Notes: generated by a model not told the origin, from the sequence alone. A DNA stretch of 64,000 nt from a virus (IMGVR_UViG_3300042340_000144); one strand, 5' to 3'. Shown: positions 33,005 through 50,346, numbered from the stretch's first letter. Numbers and translations are program-made.

Positions 33005-34027
33005 TTAAATTAAAGAATTAACATGATCTCTTAGAGCTATAAATAAAGATTCTTCAGCTTTTAACTTAGTAGCTAAATTACCTTCACCTTGTATCTTTAT
33101 AGGCTCCTCTGAACTTAAATTGGGCAAACTTAAAGTAATCCAAGAACCAGCTTGTTTAATAACATTTACATCTGGATGCTTGGCCATTCTAATTAAATCT
33201 ATGTAGGGATTATACATAGTATTAGTAATAGTTTTATCATCACTATCCTGTTCTAGATCAACTTGCATATCAATAGATCTCAATGCTCTACCATACTTTG
33301 ATTTAATACATTTAATCTGTACATCAAAGTCATTAATACCCTGTTCATCAGGTGCTTTTAATGCTCTCTTACTAGTCATTAATCTAATGCTAGCCCAGTA
33401 TGGTAAACCCTTACCACCCATACTACCTTCAGGGTTACCATAACCACTTAAATTAGTATTTCTAACTTGATTAATAAGTATTAGAACTACATTATGTTTC
33501 TTACATTTAACACTAAATTGTGGCAAGTTTTCACTTAACAATCTAGCTCTAACACCCATAACATGAACATCACCTACTTCTTTACTTTCATCTGTTAATT
33601 TCTCTGGAACAAGACCAGCAACACTATCAATAATAACAGCGCAGAAGTCATCACTAAGATAAGATCTAGTACATTGTAAACCTTCCTCAGCACTAGTAGC
33701 ATCAACTAATAATACCTTATCAGGATCTAATCCAACATTAGCAGCATGTGTACTAGTATAACCAAACTCACTAGCTTGTATATAACCTACAAACTTATCT
33801 GTTTGTTGTTGTAATTGAGCAGCTATATACATTGCTAACAATGATTTACTTGTTTGTTCAGGACCATATATTTCAATAATAGTACCATATGGAACACCAC
33901 CACCTAACAAGTAATTAATAGAAGGTGATTCTAACTTAAACCTTTGTACTTCAACTTGATTACCAATACAAACTTGTTTCTTACCAACTACCTTTTCAGT
34001 TAGTTTTAAATACTCATTTAAATCCAT
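33005..34027 (-). CDS. RecA/UvsX-family recombinase
   Basis: 340 aa; Walker A IEIYGPEQTSKS (cf. EIYGPESSGKT), Walker B VIIDSVAGL (cf. IVVDSVAAL), GGKGLPYWASIRL (cf. GG.AL.F.ASVRL). Confidence 0.8.
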   Translation of the reverse strand: MDLNEYLKLTEKVVGKKQVCIGNQVEVQRFKLESPSINYLLGGGVPYGTIIEIYGPEQTSKSLLAMYIAAQLQQQTDKFVGYIQASEFGYTSTHAANVGLDPDKVLLVDATSAEEGLQCTRSYLSDDFCAVIIDSVAGLVPEKLTDESKEVGDVHVMGVRARLLSENLPQFSVKCKKHNVVLILINQVRNTNLSGYGNPEGSMGGKGLPYWASIRLMTSKRALKAPDEQGINDFDVQIKCIKSKYGRALRSIDMQVDLEQDSDDKTITNTMYNPYIDLIRMAKHPDVNVIKQAGSWITLSLPNLSSEEPIKIQGEGNLATKLKAEESLFIALRDHVNSLI

Positions 34028-36602: not shown

Positions 36603-37472
36603 ATGGCATCTAAAAGAATTAGTCAATTGCCTCCTGCATCATCTGTATCAGGCAATTCATTATTAGCTATTGTTAATAATAATGTAACTGAAAAAGTTAC
36701 TATATCTCAACTACCTTTAGGTATTACTTCAGTTAATAATTTAGGAGATGGAGCTTCTTTAGGATTTGTATCACAAAATGAATTAAGATTAAAAACTTTA
36801 GTAGCAGGAACTGGTTTATCTTTTACAACAAGTTTTAATAGTGTTACATTAAATACTGTATTTAATGTTAATAATGTAGGTAGTGGAACATCACTTATAA
36901 ATACCTTTACTAATCCTAACTTAGCTTTAAAGTCTATAACTGGATCAGGCAATATTACTATAACTGATAATACTACTAGTATTAACATAGCTAGTACACC
37001 ATTAACAACTTCTAATACTGGTAGTGGAAAATCATTTATAAACTCTTTTACTAATAATAACTTAGCTTTAAAGTCTATAACTGGATCAGGTAGTGTAACA
37101 GTTACAGATAATACTACTAGTATTAATATAGCTAGTGTTCCTGTAACAAGTTCTACTACTGGATCTGGAACATCATTTATAAATTCATTTACCAACTCTA
37201 ACTTAGCTCTTAAATCAATTACTGGATCAGGTAGTGTAACTGTAACTGATAATACCACCAGCATTAATATTGCTAGTACACCAGTAACTGCTTCTAGTAG
37301 TGGTTCTGGTACATCCCTTATAAATTCATTTACTAATTCTAATCTAGCTTTAAAGTCTATAACTGGATCAAATGGTATAATAATTACAAATAATACTACT
37401 AGTATTGATATTGCTAATACTAATAATATAAACTTTGCTCAAACTTTAGCAATAGGAATGCTTAAATGTTAA
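36603..37472 (+). CDS. tail-fibre-like protein with 4 x 47-aa tandem repeats
   Basis: 289 aa; Ser/Thr/Asn-rich beta-type repeats GSGxSxINSFTNxNLALKSITGSGxVTVTDNTTSINIAS...; overlaps start of next fibre gene. Confidence 0.5.
   Translation: MASKRISQLPPASSVSGNSLLAIVNNNVTEKVTISQLPLGITSVNNLGDGASLGFVSQNELRLKTLVAGTGLSFTTSFNSVTLNTVFNVNNVGSGTSLINTFTNPNLALKSITGSGNITITDNTTSINIASTPLTTSNTGSGKSFINSFTNNNLALKSITGSGSVTVTDNTTSINIASVPVTSSTTGSGTSFINSFTNSNLALKSITGSGSVTVTDNTTSINIASTPVTASSSGSGTSLINSFTNSNLALKSITGSNGIIITNNTTSIDIANTNNINFAQTLAIGMLKC
36879..37442 (+). repeat. four tandem 141-bp coding repeats
   Basis: repeat unit starts at 36879, 37020, 37161, 37302 (ggtagtgg/ggatctgg/ggttctgg), period exactly 141 bp. 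Confidence 0.8.
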
Positions 37473-38797
37473 TACTAGGAACAACAACAGATAAAATTCA
37501 AGTTACTTTAAGTAGTGCAATTACTACAAATCAATTAGATTGTATTGCAACTTATAAAGATATAACAACTTCAGCATATTCTGGAAGCGCACCAATACTT
37601 GTTACAACTAATAACACTACTAATGTAGATTTGGTGCCAGCACCAACTTCTAATACTCAAAGAATTGTAGATTTTATTAGCATTTATAACAATGACACTG
37701 CAAATGCAACAGTAACGGTAACAATAAATAGAAATGGTTCAGTGGGTATATTATTTAAATGTACTTTAAAAACTAGTGAATCTTTAGTATATAGTGAAGG
37801 TGCAGGTTGGAATATACATTCAAATAATGGGTCCCCTAAACAATTTTTAACATATGATACTAGTTTAAATTCTAATAAAAACTACTTTAAAAATCCTGCT
37901 TTCTCAGTAATTCAAAGCAGTGCATCAGGAACACTTGCCAACTCCCTAGCACTGCCAACAGCATCGCTTGGATACCTAGGCGAAACAGAGTGGGGTATTG
38001 CTGCTAGTGGTGGCACACCTGCTTATGCTTTTAATTCAGCAAATGAATCTGTCACTTTTACAGGCGCAGCTTCTACTACAGCAATCTATTTACTACAAAG
38101 ACTTGAAAGTAGAGATACTAACAGGCTTAAAGCCAAAACAGTAACATTCTCTTGTGAAATCTCTAACTCACTTCTCACATCAGTAATCTGGGAAGTATTT
38201 AGACCCACTACTAGCAATGATACTCATGGTACTATTGCAACACCTACACAAACTCTAATTGCTAATGGTACTTTTACTGTAAACAGTACATTAAGTAAAT
38301 ATAGTGTTACTTTTGCTTTACCTAGTGAAGTTTCTAGAGGGTTAGAAGTAAGACTGAGAGTAGGAGCGCAAACATCAGGAACATGGGTTGTGTCGCGATT
38401 GCAATTAGAAGAGGGAAGTACTGCTACTGATTTTAATTGTGAAGATTATCCTAAAGAGCTTAGGAAGTGCCAGAGGTATTTTCAGACTAATCCGTTAGGA
38501 TGGGTTTTAACTACAAACTCAATCTCATCTAATATGAATGTATCGGGGACACTGCTAGTCGAAATGCGGACAACACCAATTATCGCCCAACTTACTACAG
38601 ACGTTTATGGCATTGCTACGGGACCCAACACAGACTCGAACTATAGCTCAACCAATAGCGATATTGCCTTGGTGGTCGCTTCTTCAAACGGTGTTGCTCG
38701 TATCAGACTAACTGGACTTGGTGCTGTCTCTCCTACCAACGCTTTTTTCACATTGGGCCCTGAGAACAAGTTCTCTCTTTCTGCACACATTCCCTAA
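37466..38797 (+). CDS. tail fibre / receptor-binding protein A (mosaic)
   Basis: 443 aa; N-terminal ~110 aa near-identical to the start of 39276..40565; C-terminal third encoded by markedly GC-richer DNA (about 38400-38797); ends SAHIP. Confidence 0.6.
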   Translation: MLILGTTTDKIQVTLSSAITTNQLDCIATYKDITTSAYSGSAPILVTTNNTTNVDLVPAPTSNTQRIVDFISIYNNDTANATVTVTINRNGSVGILFKCTLKTSESLVYSEGAGWNIHSNNGSPKQFLTYDTSLNSNKNYFKNPAFSVIQSSASGTLANSLALPTASLGYLGETEWGIAASGGTPAYAFNSANESVTFTGAASTTAIYLLQRLESRDTNRLKAKTVTFSCEISNSLLTSVIWEVFRPTTSNDTHGTIATPTQTLIANGTFTVNSTLSKYSVTFALPSEVSRGLEVRLRVGAQTSGTWVVSRLQLEEGSTATDFNCEDYPKELRKCQRYFQTNPLGWVLTTNSISSNMNVSGTLLVEMRTTPIIAQLTTDVYGIATGPNTDSNYSSTNSDIALVVASSNGVARIRLTGLGAVSPTNAFFTLGPENKFSLSAHIP

Positions 38798-38806
38798 AAA
38801 AACATG

Positions 38807-39119
38807 ATCTACCAACTAACTCAAGACCCTAACCAAATCAAGCGCCTATCCGATGGCGCGCTAGTCCCTAATGCCCAAAATGGCGATTGGCAGCTATACG
38901 AAGCTTGGCTTGCAGAAGCAAAGGCTTGAAAGCAGAGACACCAATAGAATTAAGAGCAAAACAGTAACATTCTCCTGTGAAATCTCTAACTCACTTCTCA
39001 CTTCAATGATTTGGGAAGTATTTAGACCTACTACAATCAATGATACTCATGGTACTATTGCTTCAGGAACTTCTACATATATGCATTGTAGATGGCAAGC
39101 TTTAGCTCATATACCTTAA
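38807..39119 (+). pseudogene. scrambled relic: truncated chaperone-gene 5' end fused to a fibre mid-segment and fibre 3' end
   Basis: 38807-38932 encodes [41 protein letters not shown], a truncated homologue of the 40573..40938 N-terminus. 38921-39065 duplicates fibre-A region 38095-38240 at about 85-90% identity. It ends LAHIP* like both fibres. The track ORF 38871..39119 is a frame-chimera. Confidence 0.6.
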
Positions 39120-39275
39120 TCATTATAAATTTTATTTATAAACTAAAAACTTGATTAAAAAAAACACATTCTATGAAAATTAAAGTACATAAACTTTTAA
39201 CTTTTACAGTTATAATTAATAATATTATAAGTAATAATATAAACATTACTCAAAATTTAAGAGTAGGACTATAAA

Positions 39276-40565
39276 ATGTTAATATTAGCAACAACAACTG
39301 ATAAAATTCAAGTATTACTTACAAGTGCAGTTACAACAAATCAATTAGATTGTATTGCAACTTATAAGGACATTTCAACTACAGCTTATTCTGGCAGTTC
39401 TCCAACACTTGTTACAACTAACAATACAACTGCTGTAGATTTGGTTCCAGCACCAGCTTCTAATGTTCAGAGAATTGTAGACTTTATAAGTGTTTACAAT
39501 GCTGATACTGCAAATGCAATAGTAACTATAAGAATAAATAGAAATGGCTCTACTGGAGTCCTTTTTAAATGTATCTTATCAACTAATGAATTACTTGTAT
39601 ATGTTGAAGGAAAAGGTTGGAATATACACTCAAATAGTGGTTTATCTAAACAATCTTTAACATATGATAATAGTAATATAACTACAAATCCAAACTATAT
39701 AATTAATAGTGGTTTTCAAGTTGCACAAGCAGCAACTTCTGCAACAATAACTGCTGGAACAGCAACACCAACTGCATCTTTAGGTTATCCAGTTGTTGAT
39801 AGTTGGTTTTGTTATTCAGTTGGTGGTAATCCAACTTTAGCTCAAATTGCTGGTTCTGGTAATACTGCTAATAGACTTCAATTAACTGGTGCTGCATCTA
39901 TAACATCTGTTGGTATTGGTCAAAGAATAGAAGCTATTAATGTTGTATCTTTAGCAAATAAAACTGCAACATTATCATTTGAATGTAGTAATTCTTTACT
40001 TACATCTTTAACAGTAATAGCTAATAGACCAACAACAACTGCTAATACATTTGGCACAATTGGAACACCAACAAAGACTTTAATAAATTCTACTAATGTT
40101 GTAATTAATTCAACTTTAACTAGATATTCAGTCACTTTTACTTGCCCACAAGATGTTAATAAAGGGTTAGAAATACTATTTGTTTTAGGTGCTCAAACTA
40201 GTGGTACTTTTGTATTATCTAATGTAAAATTAGAAGAAGGTAGTGTTGCTACTACTTATGTAAGTTCTGATTATCCTAGGGAATTGAGAATATGTCAGAG
40301 ATATTTTTGGGCGCTGTTGAGTCCACTTGCTCTCCAAGGTGTTTCGGGCGGAGTAACCACTCAGCAAGTTTTCCCCATTTCTTTACCTAGCCCAATGTTT
40401 GCTAGTCCTGTTGTTAGTTCCAGTTCATCTGGCTTGATACAGTGTACATTAGCTACAACAGCTAGTACACAGTTTTTGATTATTATTTTAACGTCAACTA
40501 TTTCTGCGCCGAATGGAACAGCAGGTACGTTATCTACAGCTCTCTTATCTGCTTATATACCCTAA
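39276..40565 (+). CDS. tail fibre / receptor-binding protein B (paralog of fibre A, different distal domain)
   Basis: 429 aa; conserved N-terminus MLILATTTDKIQV...NRNGS; distal part diverged; last ~260 nt GC-richer; ends SAYIP. Confidence 0.6.
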   Translation: MLILATTTDKIQVLLTSAVTTNQLDCIATYKDISTTAYSGSSPTLVTTNNTTAVDLVPAPASNVQRIVDFISVYNADTANAIVTIRINRNGSTGVLFKCILSTNELLVYVEGKGWNIHSNSGLSKQSLTYDNSNITTNPNYIINSGFQVAQAATSATITAGTATPTASLGYPVVDSWFCYSVGGNPTLAQIAGSGNTANRLQLTGAASITSVGIGQRIEAINVVSLANKTATLSFECSNSLLTSLTVIANRPTTTANTFGTIGTPTKTLINSTNVVINSTLTRYSVTFTCPQDVNKGLEILFVLGAQTSGTFVLSNVKLEEGSVATTYVSSDYPRELRICQRYFWALLSPLALQGVSGGVTTQQVFPISLPSPMFASPVVSSSSSGLIQCTLATTASTQFLIIILTSTISAPNGTAGTLSTALLSAYIP

Positions 40566-40572
40566 ATAAACT

Positions 40573-40938
40573 ATGTATAAATTAACAAACAACCTCAACC
40601 AAATTATCCGCTTATCTGATGGTGCAATTATCCCTAATGCTTTTAATGGTGACTGGCAATTATATGAAGCTTGGTTAGCAGAGGGTAATACACCTCAACC
40701 AGCAGATGAACCACCTAAACCAATTAGAGAGTTAGATGCTACAACTTTAAGATTAGCTTTGCTTCAACTTAATTTATTAGATGATGTAGAAGATGCATTA
40801 AACACACTACCAAGAGCAGCACAAATTGCTTGGGAATACTCTATAGTTATTAAAGAAGACTCAGTTTTGGTGCAAGAAATGATTTCTAAATTAAAATTAG
40901 ATATTGATTTAATATTTAAAACAGCATTAGAATTATAA
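40573..40938 (+). CDS. tail-fibre assembly/chaperone-like small protein (putative)
   Basis: 121 aa immediately 3' of fibre B; a truncated copy sits 3' of fibre A, indicating a fibre+chaperone cassette. Confidence 0.4.
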
Positions 40939-40961
40939 TAATAAGCTGTTTAATAAAAAAA

Positions 40962-41004
40962 CCTCCTAGAAACTTAATTAAAAGGCTCTAGGAGGGTTTT
41001 ATAT
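40962..41004 (+). terminator. rho-independent terminator
   Basis: 9-bp stem cctcctaga / tctaggagg (16-nt loop) followed by gttttatattgtt. Confidence 0.5.
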
Positions 41005-41104
41005 TGTTAAAGGTTATTTTAATAACCTAATCATTTTTAATAATAAATTCCTTAAATATCTTCTTAGGTTTATAAGCCTATAAATATTTATTAATCCTAT
41101 TATA

Positions 41105-42562
41105 TTGTTAATTTATATATTAAATAATATTATTATGCAAGAAAAACCTAAAAACTTATTTTGTACAAGCCATTTTTTATCAGTAATAGGAGTTTTGTAT
41201 ATAACAACTATAAGTCCAGCAATAGATAAAGCAATATTAGAAGGATTAACAAAAAAAGAGATAGGACATCTAATTAATTCTACTTTAGTTGGAGTAGTAG
41301 CTGGATCATTAAAAATGTTAGATAAAGATGCATATACACCTAAATTCCTTCCAGGAAGAGATAAAAATAAAGCATTAAATAATCTTAGTTCCACCACTAA
41401 TCAAGAAACAATAGAAAACAATGTTAATGATGTTAAAACACAAGTTGATAAAAATATTAACACTGTTACAACAGAGACTATTAACTCTATAATACCTAAT
41501 AACAATACATTTCAAAATACTGCAATTAGAGCAATATTACCAAATGTAGTTAACTCTTATAATGATTCAATTACATCTAATTTAAATAATGATATTAATA
41601 ATACAGATAATAATATTAGTGATGAAACTGCTAAATTATTTAAAACAAAAGATGTATTAAAAAACAACAATGAAGAAGTTAAAAATAACATTCAACATAA
41701 TGTTAAATATGGCTCTGATTATCATTCAAACTTATTAATTAATAAACAGTTAACTAATATTGTAATTAAAGCTAAACAAGATACATTTTATAAATTTGAG
41801 CCAGTGGATAGTTCTAAATTATCTAATGATAAAAAGATTAAAATTGAATCAGAAGTAACAATATATATTGATTCATATAACACAAATAACATAACTAATA
41901 ATCACATTCAATTTAGTATTAATGGTGTTAATTTATATGCTTTTATACCTCATATAACTATTATTAATAACAACATTGCAATTGATAAAGAAGTAGATTT
42001 AATTAATACTAATAATTTTAGACCTACAATAGAACAATGTAATGAGTTATATAACACTATACTAACAGAAGAAGAATATAATGATTTGATTAAATGTTTA
42101 AACACTTTTAACATTAATACTAAAATTGACGTAGCACACTTTCTTAGTCAAGTGGGGCATGAATCAGCAGGATTAAGGTATATGAAAGAACTGGGAGATT
42201 ATAATTATTTTTCTAAAAACTATGATTATAGAAATGATTTAGGAAATACTGAGCCTGGAGATGGAGCTAAATTCTCTGGAGTAGGCCCAATTCAAATGAC
42301 AGGTCGTTACAACTATCAAGCTTTTGCAGACTTTATTAAAGATCAAAAAGTAATGCAAGGTGTTGACTATGTAGCTTCTAAATATTTTTTCCTTCCTAGT
42401 GGTTTTTGGTGGTTTAATAATGAAATATCAGATTATATAAATAATAAAAATGCTACAGTAGAACAAGTGTCTGCAAGAGTCAATGGTAAGCATCCAGCTA
42501 ATGGATTGCAAGATAGATTATTTTATTTCTCACGTTGTAAAAAGATTTTTAGTATAACATAA
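41105..42562 (+). CDS. glycoside hydrolase family 19-type lysin (chitinase-like peptidoglycan hydrolase) with long N-rich N-terminal region
   Basis: 485 aa; C-terminal block AHFLSQVGHESAGLRY...YRNDLGNTEPGDGAKFSGVGPIQMTGRYNY matches the GH19 core (AHFLAQ.SHE....Y.GRGPIQLT.NYNY). Confidence 0.65.
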   Translation: MLIYILNNIIMQEKPKNLFCTSHFLSVIGVLYITTISPAIDKAILEGLTKKEIGHLINSTLVGVVAGSLKMLDKDAYTPKFLPGRDKNKALNNLSSTTNQETIENNVNDVKTQVDKNINTVTTETINSIIPNNNTFQNTAIRAILPNVVNSYNDSITSNLNNDINNTDNNISDETAKLFKTKDVLKNNNEEVKNNIQHNVKYGSDYHSNLLINKQLTNIVIKAKQDTFYKFEPVDSSKLSNDKKIKIESEVTIYIDSYNTNNITNNHIQFSINGVNLYAFIPHITIINNNIAIDKEVDLINTNNFRPTIEQCNELYNTILTEEEYNDLIKCLNTFNINTKIDVAHFLSQVGHESAGLRYMKELGDYNYFSKNYDYRNDLGNTEPGDGAKFSGVGPIQMTGRYNYQAFADFIKDQKVMQGVDYVASKYFFLPSGFWWFNNEISDYINNKNATVEQVSARVNGKHPANGLQDRLFYFSRCKKIFSIT

Positions 42563-42713
42563 GAAATAAGTCAAAGCAGATCAAACTCTTTTTTTAACTT
42601 AATCTGTTTTTCCTTTAGCTTCTTTCTCTGTTTTAAAATTACCAAACCATTTTCTTTTTCTATTAATGTAAATTTCAACATTCTAATCTTTATAATGCTA
42701 GCATTAAATATAA

Positions 42714-42755
42714 ATAAAAAAACCTTAATTAAAAGTAAATTAAGGTTTTTTATTT
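42714..42755. terminator. bidirectional rho-independent terminator between convergent genes
   Basis: A7 - aaccttaatt - aaaagta - aattaaggtt - T5 (10-bp perfect stem flanked by A-run and T-run). Confidence 0.7.
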
Positions 42756-42829
42756 ATATTACTTAATGTATTTTTTAGTTAATGGTATATATTGTTTTCT
42801 ATATCTTAACTTATATTAAGTCTTATTTT

Positions 42830-43351
42830 TTAAACTCCCCAAATATAACCATTACCATCTTTATTTACATATAATTTAGTATTAGGTATAGGAGTTGGTA
42901 ATATGTAATCACTTAATCTATTAGTAGTATATTGTTTATTAACAGCACTATTGTTATTAGTAGTTAATACAGTAGTTAATATAGGTCTTGTTAAGGGGGA
43001 ATTAAATAGGGCTTTACTATTTAATATTGTAGTAAAGTTTGTTTTAATAGTATTTAAACTAGTTATATAAGTATTACTATCAGTTGTAATACTATTTACA
43101 TTATTTATTAAAGTATATTTATTTAATAAAGTATTATGTTTAATTTGTAAATTATTAATTAATCTTGTTGTATAAGTAACTTGAGGGGGAATAATAATTG
43201 TATTTAAATCTAATACAAGATCAGTTAATATATTATTAAAAGGATTAAATAAAGAATTTAAATAATCATTAAAGTTATTAATTGTATTTATACTTTGATT
43301 ACCAACTAAATTCTCTCTATTAAATATATCTAAAGATGTTAGGTACTCCAT
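42830..43351 (-). CDS. N-rich fibrous/coiled-coil-like protein, paralog family member (C-terminal D.NG...W)
   Basis: 173 aa; ends KDGNGYIWGV; one of three tandem paralogs. Confidence 0.4.
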   Translation of the reverse strand: MEYLTSLDIFNRENLVGNQSINTINNFNDYLNSLFNPFNNILTDLVLDLNTIIIPPQVTYTTRLINNLQIKHNTLLNKYTLINNVNSITTDSNTYITSLNTIKTNFTTILNSKALFNSPLTRPILTTVLTTNNNSAVNKQYTTNRLSDYILPTPIPNTKLYVNKDGNGYIWGV

Positions 43352-44959: not shown

Positions 44960-44993
44960 AATTTAATTTTATTTAATTAAATAAAATTAAATT
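44960..44993 (-). terminator. perfect 15-bp palindrome (4-nt loop) overlapping stop of collar-domain gene
   Basis: aatttaattttattt-aatt-aaataaaattaaatt; second of two tandem hairpins between convergent genes. Confidence 0.5.
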
Positions 44994-45964
44994 TTCATAA
45001 TATATGCTAGTGCATAATATGGAGGTAAATTACTTGCATTAGCAATAGTTGTTGAGACTGAGTGATTATGTCCTGCACCTCCACCAGCAGATGCAATACT
45101 TATATAAGTAGGTGATCCTATAATACTAATACCAGTAGTATTTACTGTACTATTTGCATAAGGAGAATTAACCCAGTTATCACCAGGTCTACCAGGTGCT
45201 CTAGATTCAAAAGTTGATCCACTAGCAAAAAAAGCATGGCCTCCAACTATATGACTATGCCCAGGATCACTTACACCATGAGCATGAGTAGGATCATTTA
45301 CACCATGACTATGAGCTGGCATTTGACTAGTTGATAATGCTGTAAAACCAGTAGATCCTTCAGCAGTATGAATATGATTTAAACTACCTCCAGTAGAATT
45401 AACAGCATAAGCTGAACCAGCACTTACAACAAATCTATTTCTTAAATCAGGAGTGCCATTTGTACCATCACAAAGCTGCCAAGAAATAGGAATAGAAGTT
45501 ACTAAACCACTCCAAATAACAATAATGCCCATTGCAATTCCTATTTCTAATGTCATTACTCTACCTTCTATAGATAATAATCTACTATTAAATGAATTAA
45601 CAGTATTATCTAAATTATTAAAAGAGTTAATTAAACTAGCAATTTGTTGAGCTTGTTCAGCTATAGTTGCATTTTGACTATTAACTAGTTGGGTAATTAC
45701 ATTAATATTATTTTGTAAAAAAGATTGAACATCTGTTAAATCTTGTGCAATTTCACCAATAGCATTAGCATTATTAGTTGTATTAGCATTTATAGTGTTT
45801 ATAACATTTGTTTCTGATAAACAAGTGTTTAAACTTGCACTATTAATTTTAGAACAATTAAGTTCTCCTGTTGCATTTGCTAAATCTAAAGAAAATAAGA
45901 TATTATTCTGATATTCTTCACAAGTTAAAGCAGAACCTTTCTCAGATGGCAAAACTAAACTCAT
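44987..45964 (-). CDS. tail fibre protein with phage tail-collar (MdpB-like) domain
   Basis: 325 aa; coiled-coil N-terminus; collar-domain block IVIWSGLVTSIPISWQLCDGTNGTPDLRNRFVVSAG; H-rich strip HSHGVNDPTHAHGVSDPGHSH; C-terminal PPYYALAYIMKI. Confidence 0.7.
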   Translation of the reverse strand: MSLVLPSEKGSALTCEEYQNNILFSLDLANATGELNCSKINSASLNTCLSETNVINTINANTTNNANAIGEIAQDLTDVQSFLQNNINVITQLVNSQNATIAEQAQQIASLINSFNNLDNTVNSFNSRLLSIEGRVMTLEIGIAMGIIVIWSGLVTSIPISWQLCDGTNGTPDLRNRFVVSAGSAYAVNSTGGSLNHIHTAEGSTGFTALSTSQMPAHSHGVNDPTHAHGVSDPGHSHIVGGHAFFASGSTFESRAPGRPGDNWVNSPYANSTVNTTGISIIGSPTYISIASAGGGAGHNHSVSTTIANASNLPPYYALAYIMKI

Positions 45965-47596: not shown

Positions 47597-49066
47597 CTAA
47601 TTATCTATTACTAATAATTCACCAAATAAAGGAATATTACTCTCATAGTATTCCTTTTCTAGTACTGTCCATATAACTTGTATAGAACCTTTATTATTAA
47701 ATGGTTCTAATTCTTGAGGAACTCTTTCTAAATACAAATCTGTTAATACAACAATTAAACATACATTATTAATATCAACTTGTTCAAAACCTTTATTAAT
47801 AAACTGTTTAAATAGAGGTATAACATCAGTACCACCACCTCCTACTAAGTACTTATCTTTATGTTCTAATAACACATCAATAAGAGGTCTATCTAACTCA
47901 CTCATATTAAATAAATGAGTACCAGTAATACCATCATCAAATGTTACTAAAAGTAAATTACCAACAACTTTACTAATACTATTAATCTGATCTAAAAAGT
48001 GATTAAGACATTCTATAGAGCCATAAATACTACCAGATAAATCAACAAATACAGCTATTGTATCTGGCTGAGGTAGTCTTATATAAGGATGGTTAATAGC
48101 ACATCTATTAAAAGGGGATAAACCCATTTCATAACCATAAAACTCCTCCTCTCTAACAACATTATAATTAGTTATAATTTTATCTGATAAAGAATTAGAA
48201 GTTATTTGTTTAAGTCTATCCTCCCATCTTAAATCACTACTTTGAATAGAATCTACATCAGAAGGTATTAACTTATTAGATAACTTTCCATGCTGCTTTT
48301 TCTTATCATTTTTAATAGCATTAGCAGCCCTTTTAGCTAGATCTTTTAATGTTTCTTGTTGTTCTTCATTATTAGTAGAATCACCATCTAACACATCAAG
48401 ATCTACCTCTTCTAGCTTTATAATAAGACCAGATGGTAATGTAATAGAATCATAATCATAATCATCATTAATATTACTATTACTATTACTATTACTACTA
48501 TTACTATTACTATTACTATTATCTTGTTGTTGATTATTATTACTATTACTACTAGAATTAAACTTACTATTAGCTAATACATAAGCTAATAGTTGTTCTT
48601 CTGTCCAATTATTATCATTAATTCTAGGATGATTTGGTTCTAATAATGTACTTAAAAAGACACCTCCTAAGTCACCAAAAGTATAACCAGCTTCTTTTAA
48701 TGATTGATTAATAACAGCATCTTCAACTAAGTTAATAATCTCTTTTAAGAAGTAAGCTTTATCACTATATTGTTTATAAAGCCCTTTATTATGAAGACCA
48801 AATCTATAACTATGATTAAGATATATATGATATATCTCATGTAAAGTTAAAGTTATAAACTCACTTAACTTACTACTATCAGCCTCAATTTTATCAATGT
48901 AAGACTTGTTATACATAATAGTATTATTAGTACAAGCTGCATAAGCAAAGCTATAATCACCTATCTTAATACTAATAGCAGATAACAAATAAGCAAAGAA
49001 TGGTTCAACTTTATTAACTAATAAATATATAGTTTTATCATTAAGTTTAAAAGATAGTTTACTCAT
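47597..49066 (-). CDS. VWA-domain protein with N-terminal HExxH metallopeptidase-like domain (MoxR partner)
   Basis: 489 aa; HExxH LTLHEIYHIYLNH; MIDAS-type IAVFVDLSGSIYG; internal (SN)n tract from hexanucleotide repeats. Confidence 0.65.
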   Translation of the reverse strand: MSKLSFKLNDKTIYLLVNKVEPFFAYLLSAISIKIGDYSFAYAACTNNTIMYNKSYIDKIEADSSKLSEFITLTLHEIYHIYLNHSYRFGLHNKGLYKQYSDKAYFLKEIINLVEDAVINQSLKEAGYTFGDLGGVFLSTLLEPNHPRINDNNWTEEQLLAYVLANSKFNSSSNSNNNQQQDNSNSNSNSSNSNSNSNINDDYDYDSITLPSGLIIKLEEVDLDVLDGDSTNNEEQQETLKDLAKRAANAIKNDKKKQHGKLSNKLIPSDVDSIQSSDLRWEDRLKQITSNSLSDKIITNYNVVREEEFYGYEMGLSPFNRCAINHPYIRLPQPDTIAVFVDLSGSIYGSIECLNHFLDQINSISKVVGNLLLVTFDDGITGTHLFNMSELDRPLIDVLLEHKDKYLVGGGGTDVIPLFKQFINKGFEQVDINNVCLIVVLTDLYLERVPQELEPFNNKGSIQVIWTVLEKEYYESNIPLFGELLVIDN

Positions 49067-50346
49067 TATAATGTGCTCATTCTAAGGCCTTGATCAACTA
49101 AAGATTTAGTGCATACATGCTCTTTTGTAATAGCCTCTGAACCAGTAATAAGTTGATAGTTAATACTTACATCCTGCTTAGCCATTAACATGTCAAATAC
49201 ATTACTAATAGTTGCTTTTGCATTTATACCTTCCTTAAATTCAGTATATGCAATTTTATCTAACACTAACATTAAATTACTAATGGGAGGATAATCAATA
49301 GTATGTCTGCCTTTTTTATTATAACTAGTATTTACTTTACCTTCATCTTTTAACTTTACAAAAGTTGTCATTCTATTATTAATCTCTTGATAAACAGTGA
49401 AAATAACACTACTTACAGCTTCTAAGTTAGCAGTAATATGTTTACTATAATCAACTGATTTATCTTTACAAGTAGACTCTAAAAACTCAATAGAAGGTAT
49501 ATTTAAAGTACTATTTAAACTTTTAACAAAGATATTAGATAAACTACTACCAATAAGACCACTAACATTCTCTGTAAATGGCTGTTTATATTTATTGTCT
49601 AATACATTAACAGTTAATTTATATAACATGTCACTAACAGCAGACCAAGTTCTAGGACAAGGATTAACATAGTTATTACTATTAGCACCATAACCTACAA
49701 ATTCAGTTGGAACACCACCATTAGCTGATAAGAACTTACTATCATTAGTAATTGCCCATTTCCTATCCTTTAAGAATGCATGAACACTTGGATGATTATT
49801 ATTAGCACTATATTCTAAGTATTCTTCAACATCAAGTTGTACTTCTAAAAGCACTAATCTACTAATAATAGGACTACTAATACTAAATACATTAGCATTA
49901 TCACCAGCCCTATTAGTGGCACCAACAATAATAAACTTATCAGTTGGTAAGTCATAGTTACCAAGCTTTCTATCTCCTAACAACTGTTGTAAAATCATCA
50001 TCTCTTGAGGATTAGCATTAGCAAAATCATCTAGAAACAATACAGTCTTTTTATCACTATTAATAGCTTTGTTATACCATTCAGCAACGTAATGATTACA
50101 AGCTTTTGTATCAGGGTTGATAAAATCAACGCCATAGATATTAGATTTAGTGATTAAACCTCCTGTAAATACAACAATGTTATAATCATTATCTTTAGCA
50201 TATTGATAGATTTTAGCTGATTTACCTAAACCTGGAGCCCCCATAAACAAACAACTTCTATTAGTATAACTAGCAAGTTCAAGTTGCATAGGAATGCTAT
50301 TTAAAGTAATCTCCCCACCATTAAAATTTGACAACTTATTTGACAT
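49066..50346 (-). CDS. MoxR-type AAA+ ATPase
   Basis: 426 aa; Walker A FMGAPGLGKS, Walker B VLFLDDFANANPQ, Arg-finger region ISRL; stop overlaps VWA start (ATGA). Confidence 0.7.
   Translation of the reverse strand: MSNKLSNFNGGEITLNSIPMQLELASYTNRSCLFMGAPGLGKSAKIYQYAKDNDYNIVVFTGGLITKSNIYGVDFINPDTKACNHYVAEWYNKAINSDKKTVLFLDDFANANPQEMMILQQLLGDRKLGNYDLPTDKFIIVGATNRAGDNANVFSISSPIISRLVLLEVQLDVEEYLEYSANNNHPSVHAFLKDRKWAITNDSKFLSANGGVPTEFVGYGANSNNYVNPCPRTWSAVSDMLYKLTVNVLDNKYKQPFTENVSGLIGSSLSNIFVKSLNSTLNIPSIEFLESTCKDKSVDYSKHITANLEAVSSVIFTVYQEINNRMTTFVKLKDEGKVNTSYNKKGRHTIDYPPISNLMLVLDKIAYTEFKEGINAKATISNVFDMLMAKQDVSINYQLITGSEAITKEHVCTKSLVDQGLRMSTL

Follow-up and report, generated by a model that had tools for sequence, protein, structure and literature searches.

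The window analysed here is a stretch of 64,000 nucleotides (64 kb) of phage DNA, IMGVR_UViG_3300042340_000144, with an overall guanine-plus-cytosine (GC) fraction of 0.267 and a mean GC at third codon positions (GC3) of 0.14. Its tail-fibre locus lies between a minus-strand block of replication and recombination genes and a GH19-like endolysin gene at 41105-42562. The locus holds two fibre genes, A and B, a three-part relic between them and a small accessory gene behind fibre B. It is the make-up and probable history of these genes, and in particular of the variable tips of the two fibres, that we report. The features are given below; L numbers denote loci with which the window was compared, L009 to L015 being its syntenic relatives.

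37466..37876, plus strand: N-terminal domain of fibre A (amino acids 1-137), a lineage-specific anchor module; repeat D2, about 80% DNA identity to its fibre B counterpart
37877..38467, plus strand: linker and mid domain of fibre A, the latter a predicted beta-sandwich (amino acids ~172-316) like those of the carbohydrate-binding modules (CBM) CBM4/CBM22; a widely shared mobile module
38468..38482, plus strand: CQRYF motif, left limit of the variable tip in fibre A; similarity to L009-L015 stops at 38441-38489
38483..38797, plus strand: tip A, 104 amino acids and stop, GC 0.45, GC3 0.40, ending in SAHIP
38804..38918, plus strand: 5' fragment of an accessory ("chaperone-like") gene, 39 homologous codons; repeat D5, phrog_20370; GC 0.50, GC3 0.45
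38919..39061, plus strand: fibre mid-domain fragment, equivalent to amino acids 211-258; 87% identical to 38096-38238 (direct repeat), 88% to L001/L002
39062..39119, plus strand: apparent old fibre A 3' end (ending in SGTSTYMHCRWQALAHIP and stop, that is, in LAHIP and stop), joined to the mid-domain fragment at TATTGC
39120..39275, plus strand: AT-rich conserved spacer upstream of fibre B; repeat D8
39276..40307, plus strand: N-terminal and mid domains of fibre B up to CQRYF (40293-40307); 93-94% identical to L009/L010 up to 40306-40307
40308..40565, plus strand: tip B, 85 amino acids and stop, GC 0.42, GC3 0.29, ending in SAYIP
40573..40938, plus strand: accessory protein, 121 amino acids, a putative fibre assembly factor by virtue of its position only

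A preliminary description of this DNA had placed the two fibre genes and the gene that follows them correctly; the last is a 121-amino-acid open reading frame (ORF) at 40573-40938. Both fibre frames are intact (A, 37466-38797, 443 amino acids; B, 39276-40565, 429 amino acids). Their products match the PHROG 4492 tail-fibre family (phrog_4492; E 7e-19 for A and 1.6e-31 for B) and are paralogues, 60% identical to each other over amino acids 1-345 (BLASTP, E 6e-136). The two genes had been said to share an almost identical 5' region of about 330 bp and then to diverge completely. In fact, the 5' parts are 79-81% identical in DNA and 78.5% identical in protein over amino acids 1-130 (the direct repeat 37464-37763/39274-39573 stands at 81%), and the fibres are unrelated only past the CQRYF motif at amino acid ~340, that is, over their last 85-104 amino acids. 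The common ending that had been noticed is there: both proteins terminate in SA(H/Y)IP.

Each fibre consists of a lineage-specific anchor of ~137 amino acids, a portable CBM-like mid domain and a hypervariable tip of 80-115 amino acids, the last being limited by CQRYF on the left and by SA(H/Y)IP and the stop codon on the right. The CQRYF motif occurs in most members of the fibre family. An AlphaFold model of the fibre is moderate overall, with a predicted local distance difference test score (pLDDT) of 61.5, and acceptable for two beta-rich domains; the N-terminal domain comprises residues 1-110, and a short helix carries ELRKCQRYF. The predicted beta-sandwich of the mid domain is a lectin- or CBM-like fold of the receptor-binding sort, and the tail fibre of Cyanophage S-2L is 43% identical over this domain (tblastn). 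Fibres A and B are putative receptor-binding fibres.

The base composition of the locus stands apart from that of the window. No other bin of the 64 kb is as GC-rich as 38001-39000 (0.413); among 300-nt windows, the highest value (0.477) belongs to the one beginning at 38611, and those with a GC of at least 0.40 are confined to the fibre region and one patch near 45.2 kb; the uneven profile that the preliminary description had offered for checking is borne out by computation. Against a GC3 background of 0.139 +/- 0.066 (1371 in-frame windows), tip A has 0.40, the accessory-gene fragment behind it 0.45 and tip B 0.29, and 7 of the 10 highest-GC3 in-frame windows of the 64 kb lie within 38426-38785. 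The GC-rich distal parts that had been proposed are therefore real in both fibres, but in fibre A the rise begins at about 37880 and not at 38400. The rise in tip A and the fragment is present at synonymous sites and is therefore not merely an amino-acid effect; amino-acid composition as its sole cause was rejected by GC3 for these two segments. It does account in part for the GC of the fibre A mid domain, where the rise is mostly at codon positions 1-2 and GC3 is only 0.21, and fully for the 45.2-kb patch. This patch, which served as an internal control, lies in another tail-fibre-like gene and has a GC3 of 0.02-0.08, so that its GC stems from Gly, Ala, His and Pro codons. Fibre B is fully genome-adapted in composition through its mid domain (mid-domain GC3 0.04).

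Fibre genes on IMG/VR contigs of 38-134 kb, in which the locus has a GC of 0.39-0.46, show a DNA identity of 70-86% to the fibre A mid domain (37877-38480). Phages of this composition encode short fibres (~300 amino acids) without the N domain, and behind each of these stands a complete accessory gene; over the 5-13 kb sampled per locus, only the fibre and accessory genes are common to them and the window. Clustering of the tips of the proteins recovered by the full-length search gave 15 tip families. Nine of the 15 mix short fibres with long, N-domain-bearing ones, the long fibres presumably representing the AT-rich lineage. Tip A falls into a family with the short fibres P0012-P0018 and P0023, and tip B has a homologue in the short fibre of L001 (GC 0.39). 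The closest view of a donor is given by L021 (GC 0.42), which encodes a short fibre, a complete 125-amino-acid accessory gene and a DnaB helicase. This contig is colinear with positions 37877-38916 of the window at ~77% identity (mid domain 77.8%, tip 76.7%, spacer plus fragment 78.2%), and the similarity drops to 35% right after 38916, at the first junction of the relic (J1, 38918/38919). The colinearity of L021 up to J1, together with the mid domain shared by the GC 0.39-0.46 phages, upholds the proposal that the tips came from a higher-GC gene pool. A search with tip A alone against 5.8 billion proteins returned no match, a false negative of the word prefilter (its relatives were recovered via full-length matches), and pattern scans of IMG/VR for tips A and B gave no matches.

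The seven syntenic relatives that we compared (L009, L010, L011/L012, L013, L014 and L015) all have the repeat protein first, then fibre A, fibre B and the accessory gene. Identity to the window in six of them is 90-100% for the N domain, 65-99% for the mid domain and ~35% (unalignable) for the tip. On the fibre B side, similarity stops at 40306-40307, in CQRYF, and resumes in L009/L010 at 40618, codon 16 of the accessory gene; the first ~15 codons of that gene travel with tip B. The breakpoints recur at the boundary of the N and mid domains (~37877 in A, ~39693 in B), at CQRYF (38468-38482, 40293-40307) and, on the right, either within the opening ~15-45 codons of the gene downstream or at the extreme fibre 3' end. 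The conserved 5' segments had been put forward as the homology arms of the exchange, which is not supported: their 130 codons are 90-100% identical in all relatives and the breakpoints lie elsewhere. Past CQRYF, nearly every relative has a different tip. A single tip family occupies site A in L010 and site B in L014; tip B of the window has the same protein sequence as that of L011, and no alignment of it with L009/L010 is possible. In L013 the fibre B mid domain has been replaced as well, with the break at the N/mid boundary. L011 is 97% identical to window positions 39160-43000, yet has a different A tip and a different scar; the change at site A is therefore recent.

A variable segment shared between unrelated backbones, sharp breakpoints at motifs and a compositional contrast are the marks of a mosaic host-range cassette, and all of them are found here. 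We read the locus as the module by which a large, AT-rich, uncultured phage recognises its host and into which fibre tips have been taken from elsewhere, and we put the probability of this reading at about 0.85. The replacement of tips by import from a higher-GC phage pool is well supported.

The relic behind fibre A (38804-39119) has the three parts that had been described: a 5' fragment of the accessory gene, a mid-domain fragment of 143 nt (87% identical to its counterpart in fibre A) and a fibre 3' end in LAHIP. Taken as an ORF, the accessory fragment runs from 38804 to 38929 (41 amino acids, of which 39 codons are homologous). The direct repeat that it forms with the complete gene (38798-38916/40564-40682) is 71% identical; the fragment itself is 79% identical to the fragment of L011, 77% to L001 and 67.5% to the window's own accessory gene, and it would appear to have arrived together with tip A. 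L022, from an independent sample, is 99.5% identical to window positions 37709-38837, which confirms that tip A runs into the fragment.

The mid-domain fragment differs from the mid domain of fibre A at 18 positions, 13 of them third codon positions, and most of the differences are transitions. The third-position bias indicates that the fragment diverged within a working gene, under selection; mostly third-position transitions argue that it is neither a recent local copy nor a repeat of a diversity-generating retroelement (DGR). It is probably the remnant of a displaced fibre allele. Its junction with the fibre 3' end falls within a shared hexamer, TATTGC, and the last 63 nt of the relic differ at only 2 positions from the genuine fibre A 3' end of L009.

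Scars of this kind are seen in the relatives. In L010, 27 accessory codons are fused in frame to an ALAHIP ending at TGGCAA, and in L013 the join of 41 accessory codons to the old fibre end is at ACCT. The fragment in L014 is AT-rich, decayed and interrupted by stop codons; in L011 and L012, from two samples, a fresh GC-rich fragment is stacked on the decayed fragment of L014. L009 and L015 have no trace of a scar. Fresh fragments have a GC of 0.44-0.50, and the accessory genes of L001 and L006 one of 0.47-0.50; decayed fragments have 0.29-0.31. Most relatives bear their own, independent accessory-fragment scar behind fibre A. These scars, found in relatives with different tips, bear out the earlier view of the relic as a fossil of fibre and chaperone cassette exchange. 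The relic itself is probably non-functional debris, expected to drift to AT and to decay like the older scars in the relatives.

We propose that tips are swapped by a double crossover with a cassette made up of mid domain, CQRYF, tip, stop codon and accessory gene, and that tips, at times with their mid domains, are exchanged between sites A and B and with unrelated GC-richer phages. At site B, both arms would be homologous, the left one in the mid domain or CQRYF and the right one in the conserved N-terminal motif of the accessory gene. The accessory gene follows fibre B only, and site A has no such right arm; the right junction there would therefore be made by microhomology or illegitimate joining and would leave a fragment behind. 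In the case of tip A, the imported block would have reached from CQRYF (or upstream of it) through the tip and stop codon to codon 39 of the accessory gene of the donor. On the left, the crossover would have been homologous, in the mid domain or at CQRYF, and on the right the incoming accessory 5' end would have been joined to the resident fibre 3' part by microhomology or illegitimate joining. By landing at codon ~211 of the resident gene (38918/38919), this junction would have duplicated the distal part of that gene, and a later deletion at the microhomology TATTGC would have trimmed the duplicate to 143 + 58 nt. The order of these events is our reconstruction. The RecA-family gene at 33005-34027, 3.4 kb upstream of the fibre locus, is a candidate for the recombinase.

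Several points weigh against this account. The closest donor that we found is only ~77% identical, so that what is said of the true source and its GC is drawn from a relative. The mid-domain fragment is as close to L001/L002 (88%) as to fibre A of the window (87%), and L009 stands at no more than 82%; the allele that formerly resided here can thus not be named with certainty, and the fragment could have come with the import. The homology at J1 is at most 3 nt, and a search for the exact junction pattern of the scar had no match in metagenome_contigs or viral_contigs. The tip is poorly modelled (AlphaFold pLDDT below 55). Finally, the name "chaperone" for the 121-amino-acid protein derives only from the position of its gene.

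Other histories of the locus can be imagined. One would dispense with import altogether: an ancestral tandem array (fibre A, accessory gene, a third fibre and so on to fibre B) decayed locally, and the relic is what deletions left over. All of the repeats are indeed direct and tandem, the relic of an upstream gene's 3' end in the spacer before fibre B calls for at least one ancient tandem duplication, and the bias of 13 in 18 differences toward third positions makes the mid-domain fragment a former part of a working gene. However, the GC3 of tip A and the fragment lies 3-4 standard deviations above that of the genome, and the colinearity with L021 (GC 0.42) ends exactly at J1. None of the relatives has an intact middle unit, and the spacer of L009 and L015 is clean, at 156 nt. 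Further, in L010 and L013 the fragment runs straight into the final codons of the former fibre A, which requires an insertion upstream of that end and not deletion of a downstream unit. We hold purely local decay to be quite improbable. It is also conceivable that reads from co-existing fibre variants were mis-joined during metagenome assembly. Natural populations do contain repeated and polymorphic fibre modules, and the junction is the very sequence that two public collections failed to match. Yet the repeats of the window, at 71-87% identity, are too divergent for collapse, both fibre reading frames are intact, and L022 supports the continuity from tip A into the fragment independently. Similar scars occur in at least five other assemblies (JGI, ENA), the two-layer scar of L011 and L012 being shared by two samples. 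An assembly chimera is accordingly an extremely improbable source of the relic.

The relic might instead be a working element, namely the template or variable repeat of a DGR, a substrate of shufflon-like rearrangement or a functional mini-chaperone of 41 amino acids. In its favour, a pair of 143-nt repeats at 87% identity adjoins a receptor-binding gene, and the window, L011/L012 and L013 have intact fragment ORFs of 41-47 codons that possess a start codon. The mismatches between the repeats, however, are mostly third-position transitions of all kinds and are not adenine-specific; with 18 mismatches, all four kinds of transition and A in the minority, the DGR reading was rejected. No reverse transcriptase was found among the proteins scanned around the locus, a scan that took in part of the window, and the same holds for an invertase, none of which was found in the fibre locus. 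Inversion of the Mu Gin or P1 Cin type (shufflon) was rejected as well: the fibre and accessory repeats are all direct, no significant inverted repeats flank them, and the inverted repeats that were found are short AT-rich matches. L009 and L015 do not have the fragment, and in L010, in L014 and in the second of the two layers of L011 it has decayed, with stops, which indicates that it is dispensable. A working role for the relic is therefore highly improbable, and we retain tip import followed by scarring as our account of the locus.

A bolder form of that account would make site A a recurrent landing pad for tip cassettes of unrelated, GC-richer phages, each entering by one homologous and one microhomology junction, so that the site keeps a stratified record of its imports, with fresh GC-rich accessory fragments lying over older ones that have drifted to AT and gained stops. 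We think this rather unlikely, but if it were true, the record could serve to put the host-range switches of an uncultured phage population in sequence and to date them approximately. In its boldest version, intact fragments of 41-47 codons may be kept for a time as minimal, tip-specific assembly or cap peptides.

The accessory gene deserves separate mention. It stands directly downstream of a fibre in the window, in all of the syntenic relatives and in the GC-richer phages, and its 5' end moves with the tip. The model of the 121-amino-acid protein is of high confidence (pLDDT 91.8), and its structural neighbours are uncharacterised phage proteins only; searches of Pfam, NCBIfam and the PDB gave no match. 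The epithet "chaperone-like" in the preliminary description is not supported, being drawn from position and having neither a Pfam or NCBIfam match nor a solved structural relative behind it. By sequence and fold the protein does not belong with the tail-fibre assembly chaperones lambda Tfa/Caudo_TAP, DUF4376 or T4 gp38/gp57A. Over most of its length it is more than 80% conserved among relatives with different tips. Its N-terminal ~45 amino acids are universal; the C-terminal part of the L002 protein is unrelated. Because the protein is conserved across different tips and has only the N-terminal ~45 residues in common with L002, a tip-specific chaperone role is not established.

The spacer between the relic and fibre B (39120-39275) is near-identical in L009, L010 and L013; L011/L014 share it from 39160 only, and that of L015 is different. 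A relic of the 3' end of the gene upstream of fibre A lies in it at 39215-39268. The ancient duplication that created fibre B therefore took in the end of that gene. The spacer has an ORF of 33 codons (39173-39274), the end of which, NNINITQNLRVGL and stop, resembles the 3' end of the upstream gene, NNINFAQTLAIGMLKC and stop. Two further features flank the fibre genes.

36603..37472, plus strand: upstream protein, 289 amino acids, with 3.8 tandem repeats of 141 nt (47 amino acids); syntenic in all relatives
40952..41005, plus strand: hairpin after the accessory gene, inverted repeat I19, a possible terminator of the fibre operon

The stop codon of the upstream gene overlaps the start of fibre A, and its product is probably a proximal or shaft partner of the fibres. 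The repeat copies span 36879-37420 within the gene. The protein has 289 amino acids in the window, L009, L010, L013 and L015, and 242, one unit fewer, in L011, L012 and L014; this difference is a copy-number polymorphism in a probable fibre shaft. The hairpin is possibly the terminator of the fibre operon, a weak reading because a consensus terminator scan made no call there; the scan for promoters and terminators did no better on the window than on shuffled sequence.

The lysin gene follows the accessory gene except in L015, and in L012/L013 it lies outside the contig end. The endolysin (41105-42562) has a long, very AT-rich N-terminal extension ahead of its GH19-like domain, and its length among the relatives is 383, 475 or 485 amino acids. 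In L015 no gene stands at the lysin position on the fibre strand; the opposite strand matches the lysin weakly (70-75% in DNA). The tail-fibre-like gene that holds the 45.2-kb GC patch (44987-45964, minus strand, 325 amino acids, phrog_8469 tail fibre/tail collar) is the third fibre-like gene of the window. Its counterparts in L010 (15332-16768) and L009 (15650-17122) are longer (478-490 amino acids), the extra length being an intein-like insert of ~157 amino acids (beginning with C and ending in HN before C) placed between WQLC and DGTNG. The allele of the window is free of this insert, and the halves that flank the insertion site are 99% and 71-80% identical. Elsewhere, the window has a single tRNA-Thr (TGT) gene (7712-7784, minus strand) and, at 47597-50346 (minus strand), a DUF2201 metallopeptidase/VWA-like protein adjoining an AAA ATPase, a pair unrelated to the fibre locus.

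The replication and recombination block upstream of the locus holds a DNA polymerase A and the RecA-family protein already mentioned. The polymerase is only 29% identical to those of the Microcystis phage Ma-LMM01 group, and a DNA search with the locus against 50,697 phage records gave no matches; to judge from these comparisons, the phage has no cultured relative. The syntenic relatives come from metagenomes of lakes, the longest contig measuring 221.7 kb, and the lineage is one of uncultured freshwater phages with a GC of ~0.27.

A few loci bear on hosts and on the reach of the fibre modules. L020 (Phormidium tenue FACHB-1050 contig8, 77973-86590) has the fibre mid domain (76% identical in amino acids) and an accessory gene in a cyanobacterial assembly; L007, an IMG/VR viral contig from an isolate genome, has match statistics equal to those of L020 and is perhaps the same element. 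Taken with the similarities to S-2L and of the Ma-LMM01 type, L020 hints that cyanophages belong to the exchange pool. A 2-kb contig of the Bacteroidetes metagenome-assembled genome LacPavin_0818_WC55 (L019) carries a fibre B-like gene, 89% identical in DNA to 39248-40307, and an accessory gene. As a pointer to a host, the binning of this contig is weak at best, and it may be artefactual. L004 encodes a homologue of the fibre N domain as a separate gene (4167-4595; 61.5% identical in amino acids to fibre B and 70% in DNA to fibre A), ~1.3 kb upstream of its short fibre. The anchor and the binding part may there be split over two proteins.

The locus is useful beyond its own history. The exact breakpoints (the N/mid boundary, CQRYF, and the accessory 5' end or SAHIP and stop) supply design rules for tip swaps in this fibre family. 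Composition serves as a marker that separates recent from old imports, and the sister genomes supply independent scars. Further, the common modules tie AT-rich large phages, phages with a GC of 0.39-0.46 and a Phormidium-associated element into one exchange pool, which bears on host assignment.

Comparable exchanges are known from other phages. In the gp37/gp38 distal tail-fibre locus of the T-even phages, adhesin segments are reportedly swapped by recombination between conserved motifs, as Tetart et al. are said to have described in 1998; fibre mosaics of the H-G, S-U and stf-tfa genes in P2, Mu, P1 and lambda are likewise said to go back to Haggard-Ljungquist et al. in 1992 and Sandmeier in 1994. 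As in those loci, short conserved motifs that act as probable crossover points flank the variable receptor-binding segments of the window, the 3' part of the fibre is inherited together with the adjacent assembly gene, putative in our case, and the mosaicism extends across unrelated phages. The systems have no sequence or family relationship, and the motifs of the window are CQRYF and SA(H/Y)IP with its stop. Unlike the motif-mediated T-even swaps, the right junctions at site A would be microhomology or illegitimate joins.

The mutually unrelated Alteromonas phages A5, V22 and P24 have a common host-recognition module of a tail fibre and its cognate chaperone (PMC10579305). There, as here, a fibre and a small downstream gene move as a unit between phages that otherwise share nothing, in our case over the sampled flanks. 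The Alteromonas chaperones are DUF4376 proteins whose chaperone behaviour was shown or tested, whereas the 121-amino-acid protein of the window has no Pfam match and a putative role, and only the N-terminal 15-45 codons of the accessory gene move with the tip in the lineage of the window. Duplicated fibres, GC contrast and scars are features of the window and not of the Alteromonas case.

At a more general level, receptor-binding proteins of phages are mosaic at the level of fragments (PMC10684548), and phage recombinases carry out relaxed homologous recombination (PMC3945230). The window fits this picture in the shuffling of domains in host-interaction proteins, in recombination at only 70-90% identity and in having a RecA-family gene nearby. 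Those two studies are general surveys or deal with mechanisms in temperate enterobacterial phages, and the link to a recombinase in the window is by analogy. Within the PHROG 4492 family, Cyanophage S-2L included, the mid domain only is common; the group of the window has an N-terminal anchor and tips of its own. The locus thus calls for no new mechanism and will not surprise the specialist: its behaviour matches the known exchange of host-range cassettes.

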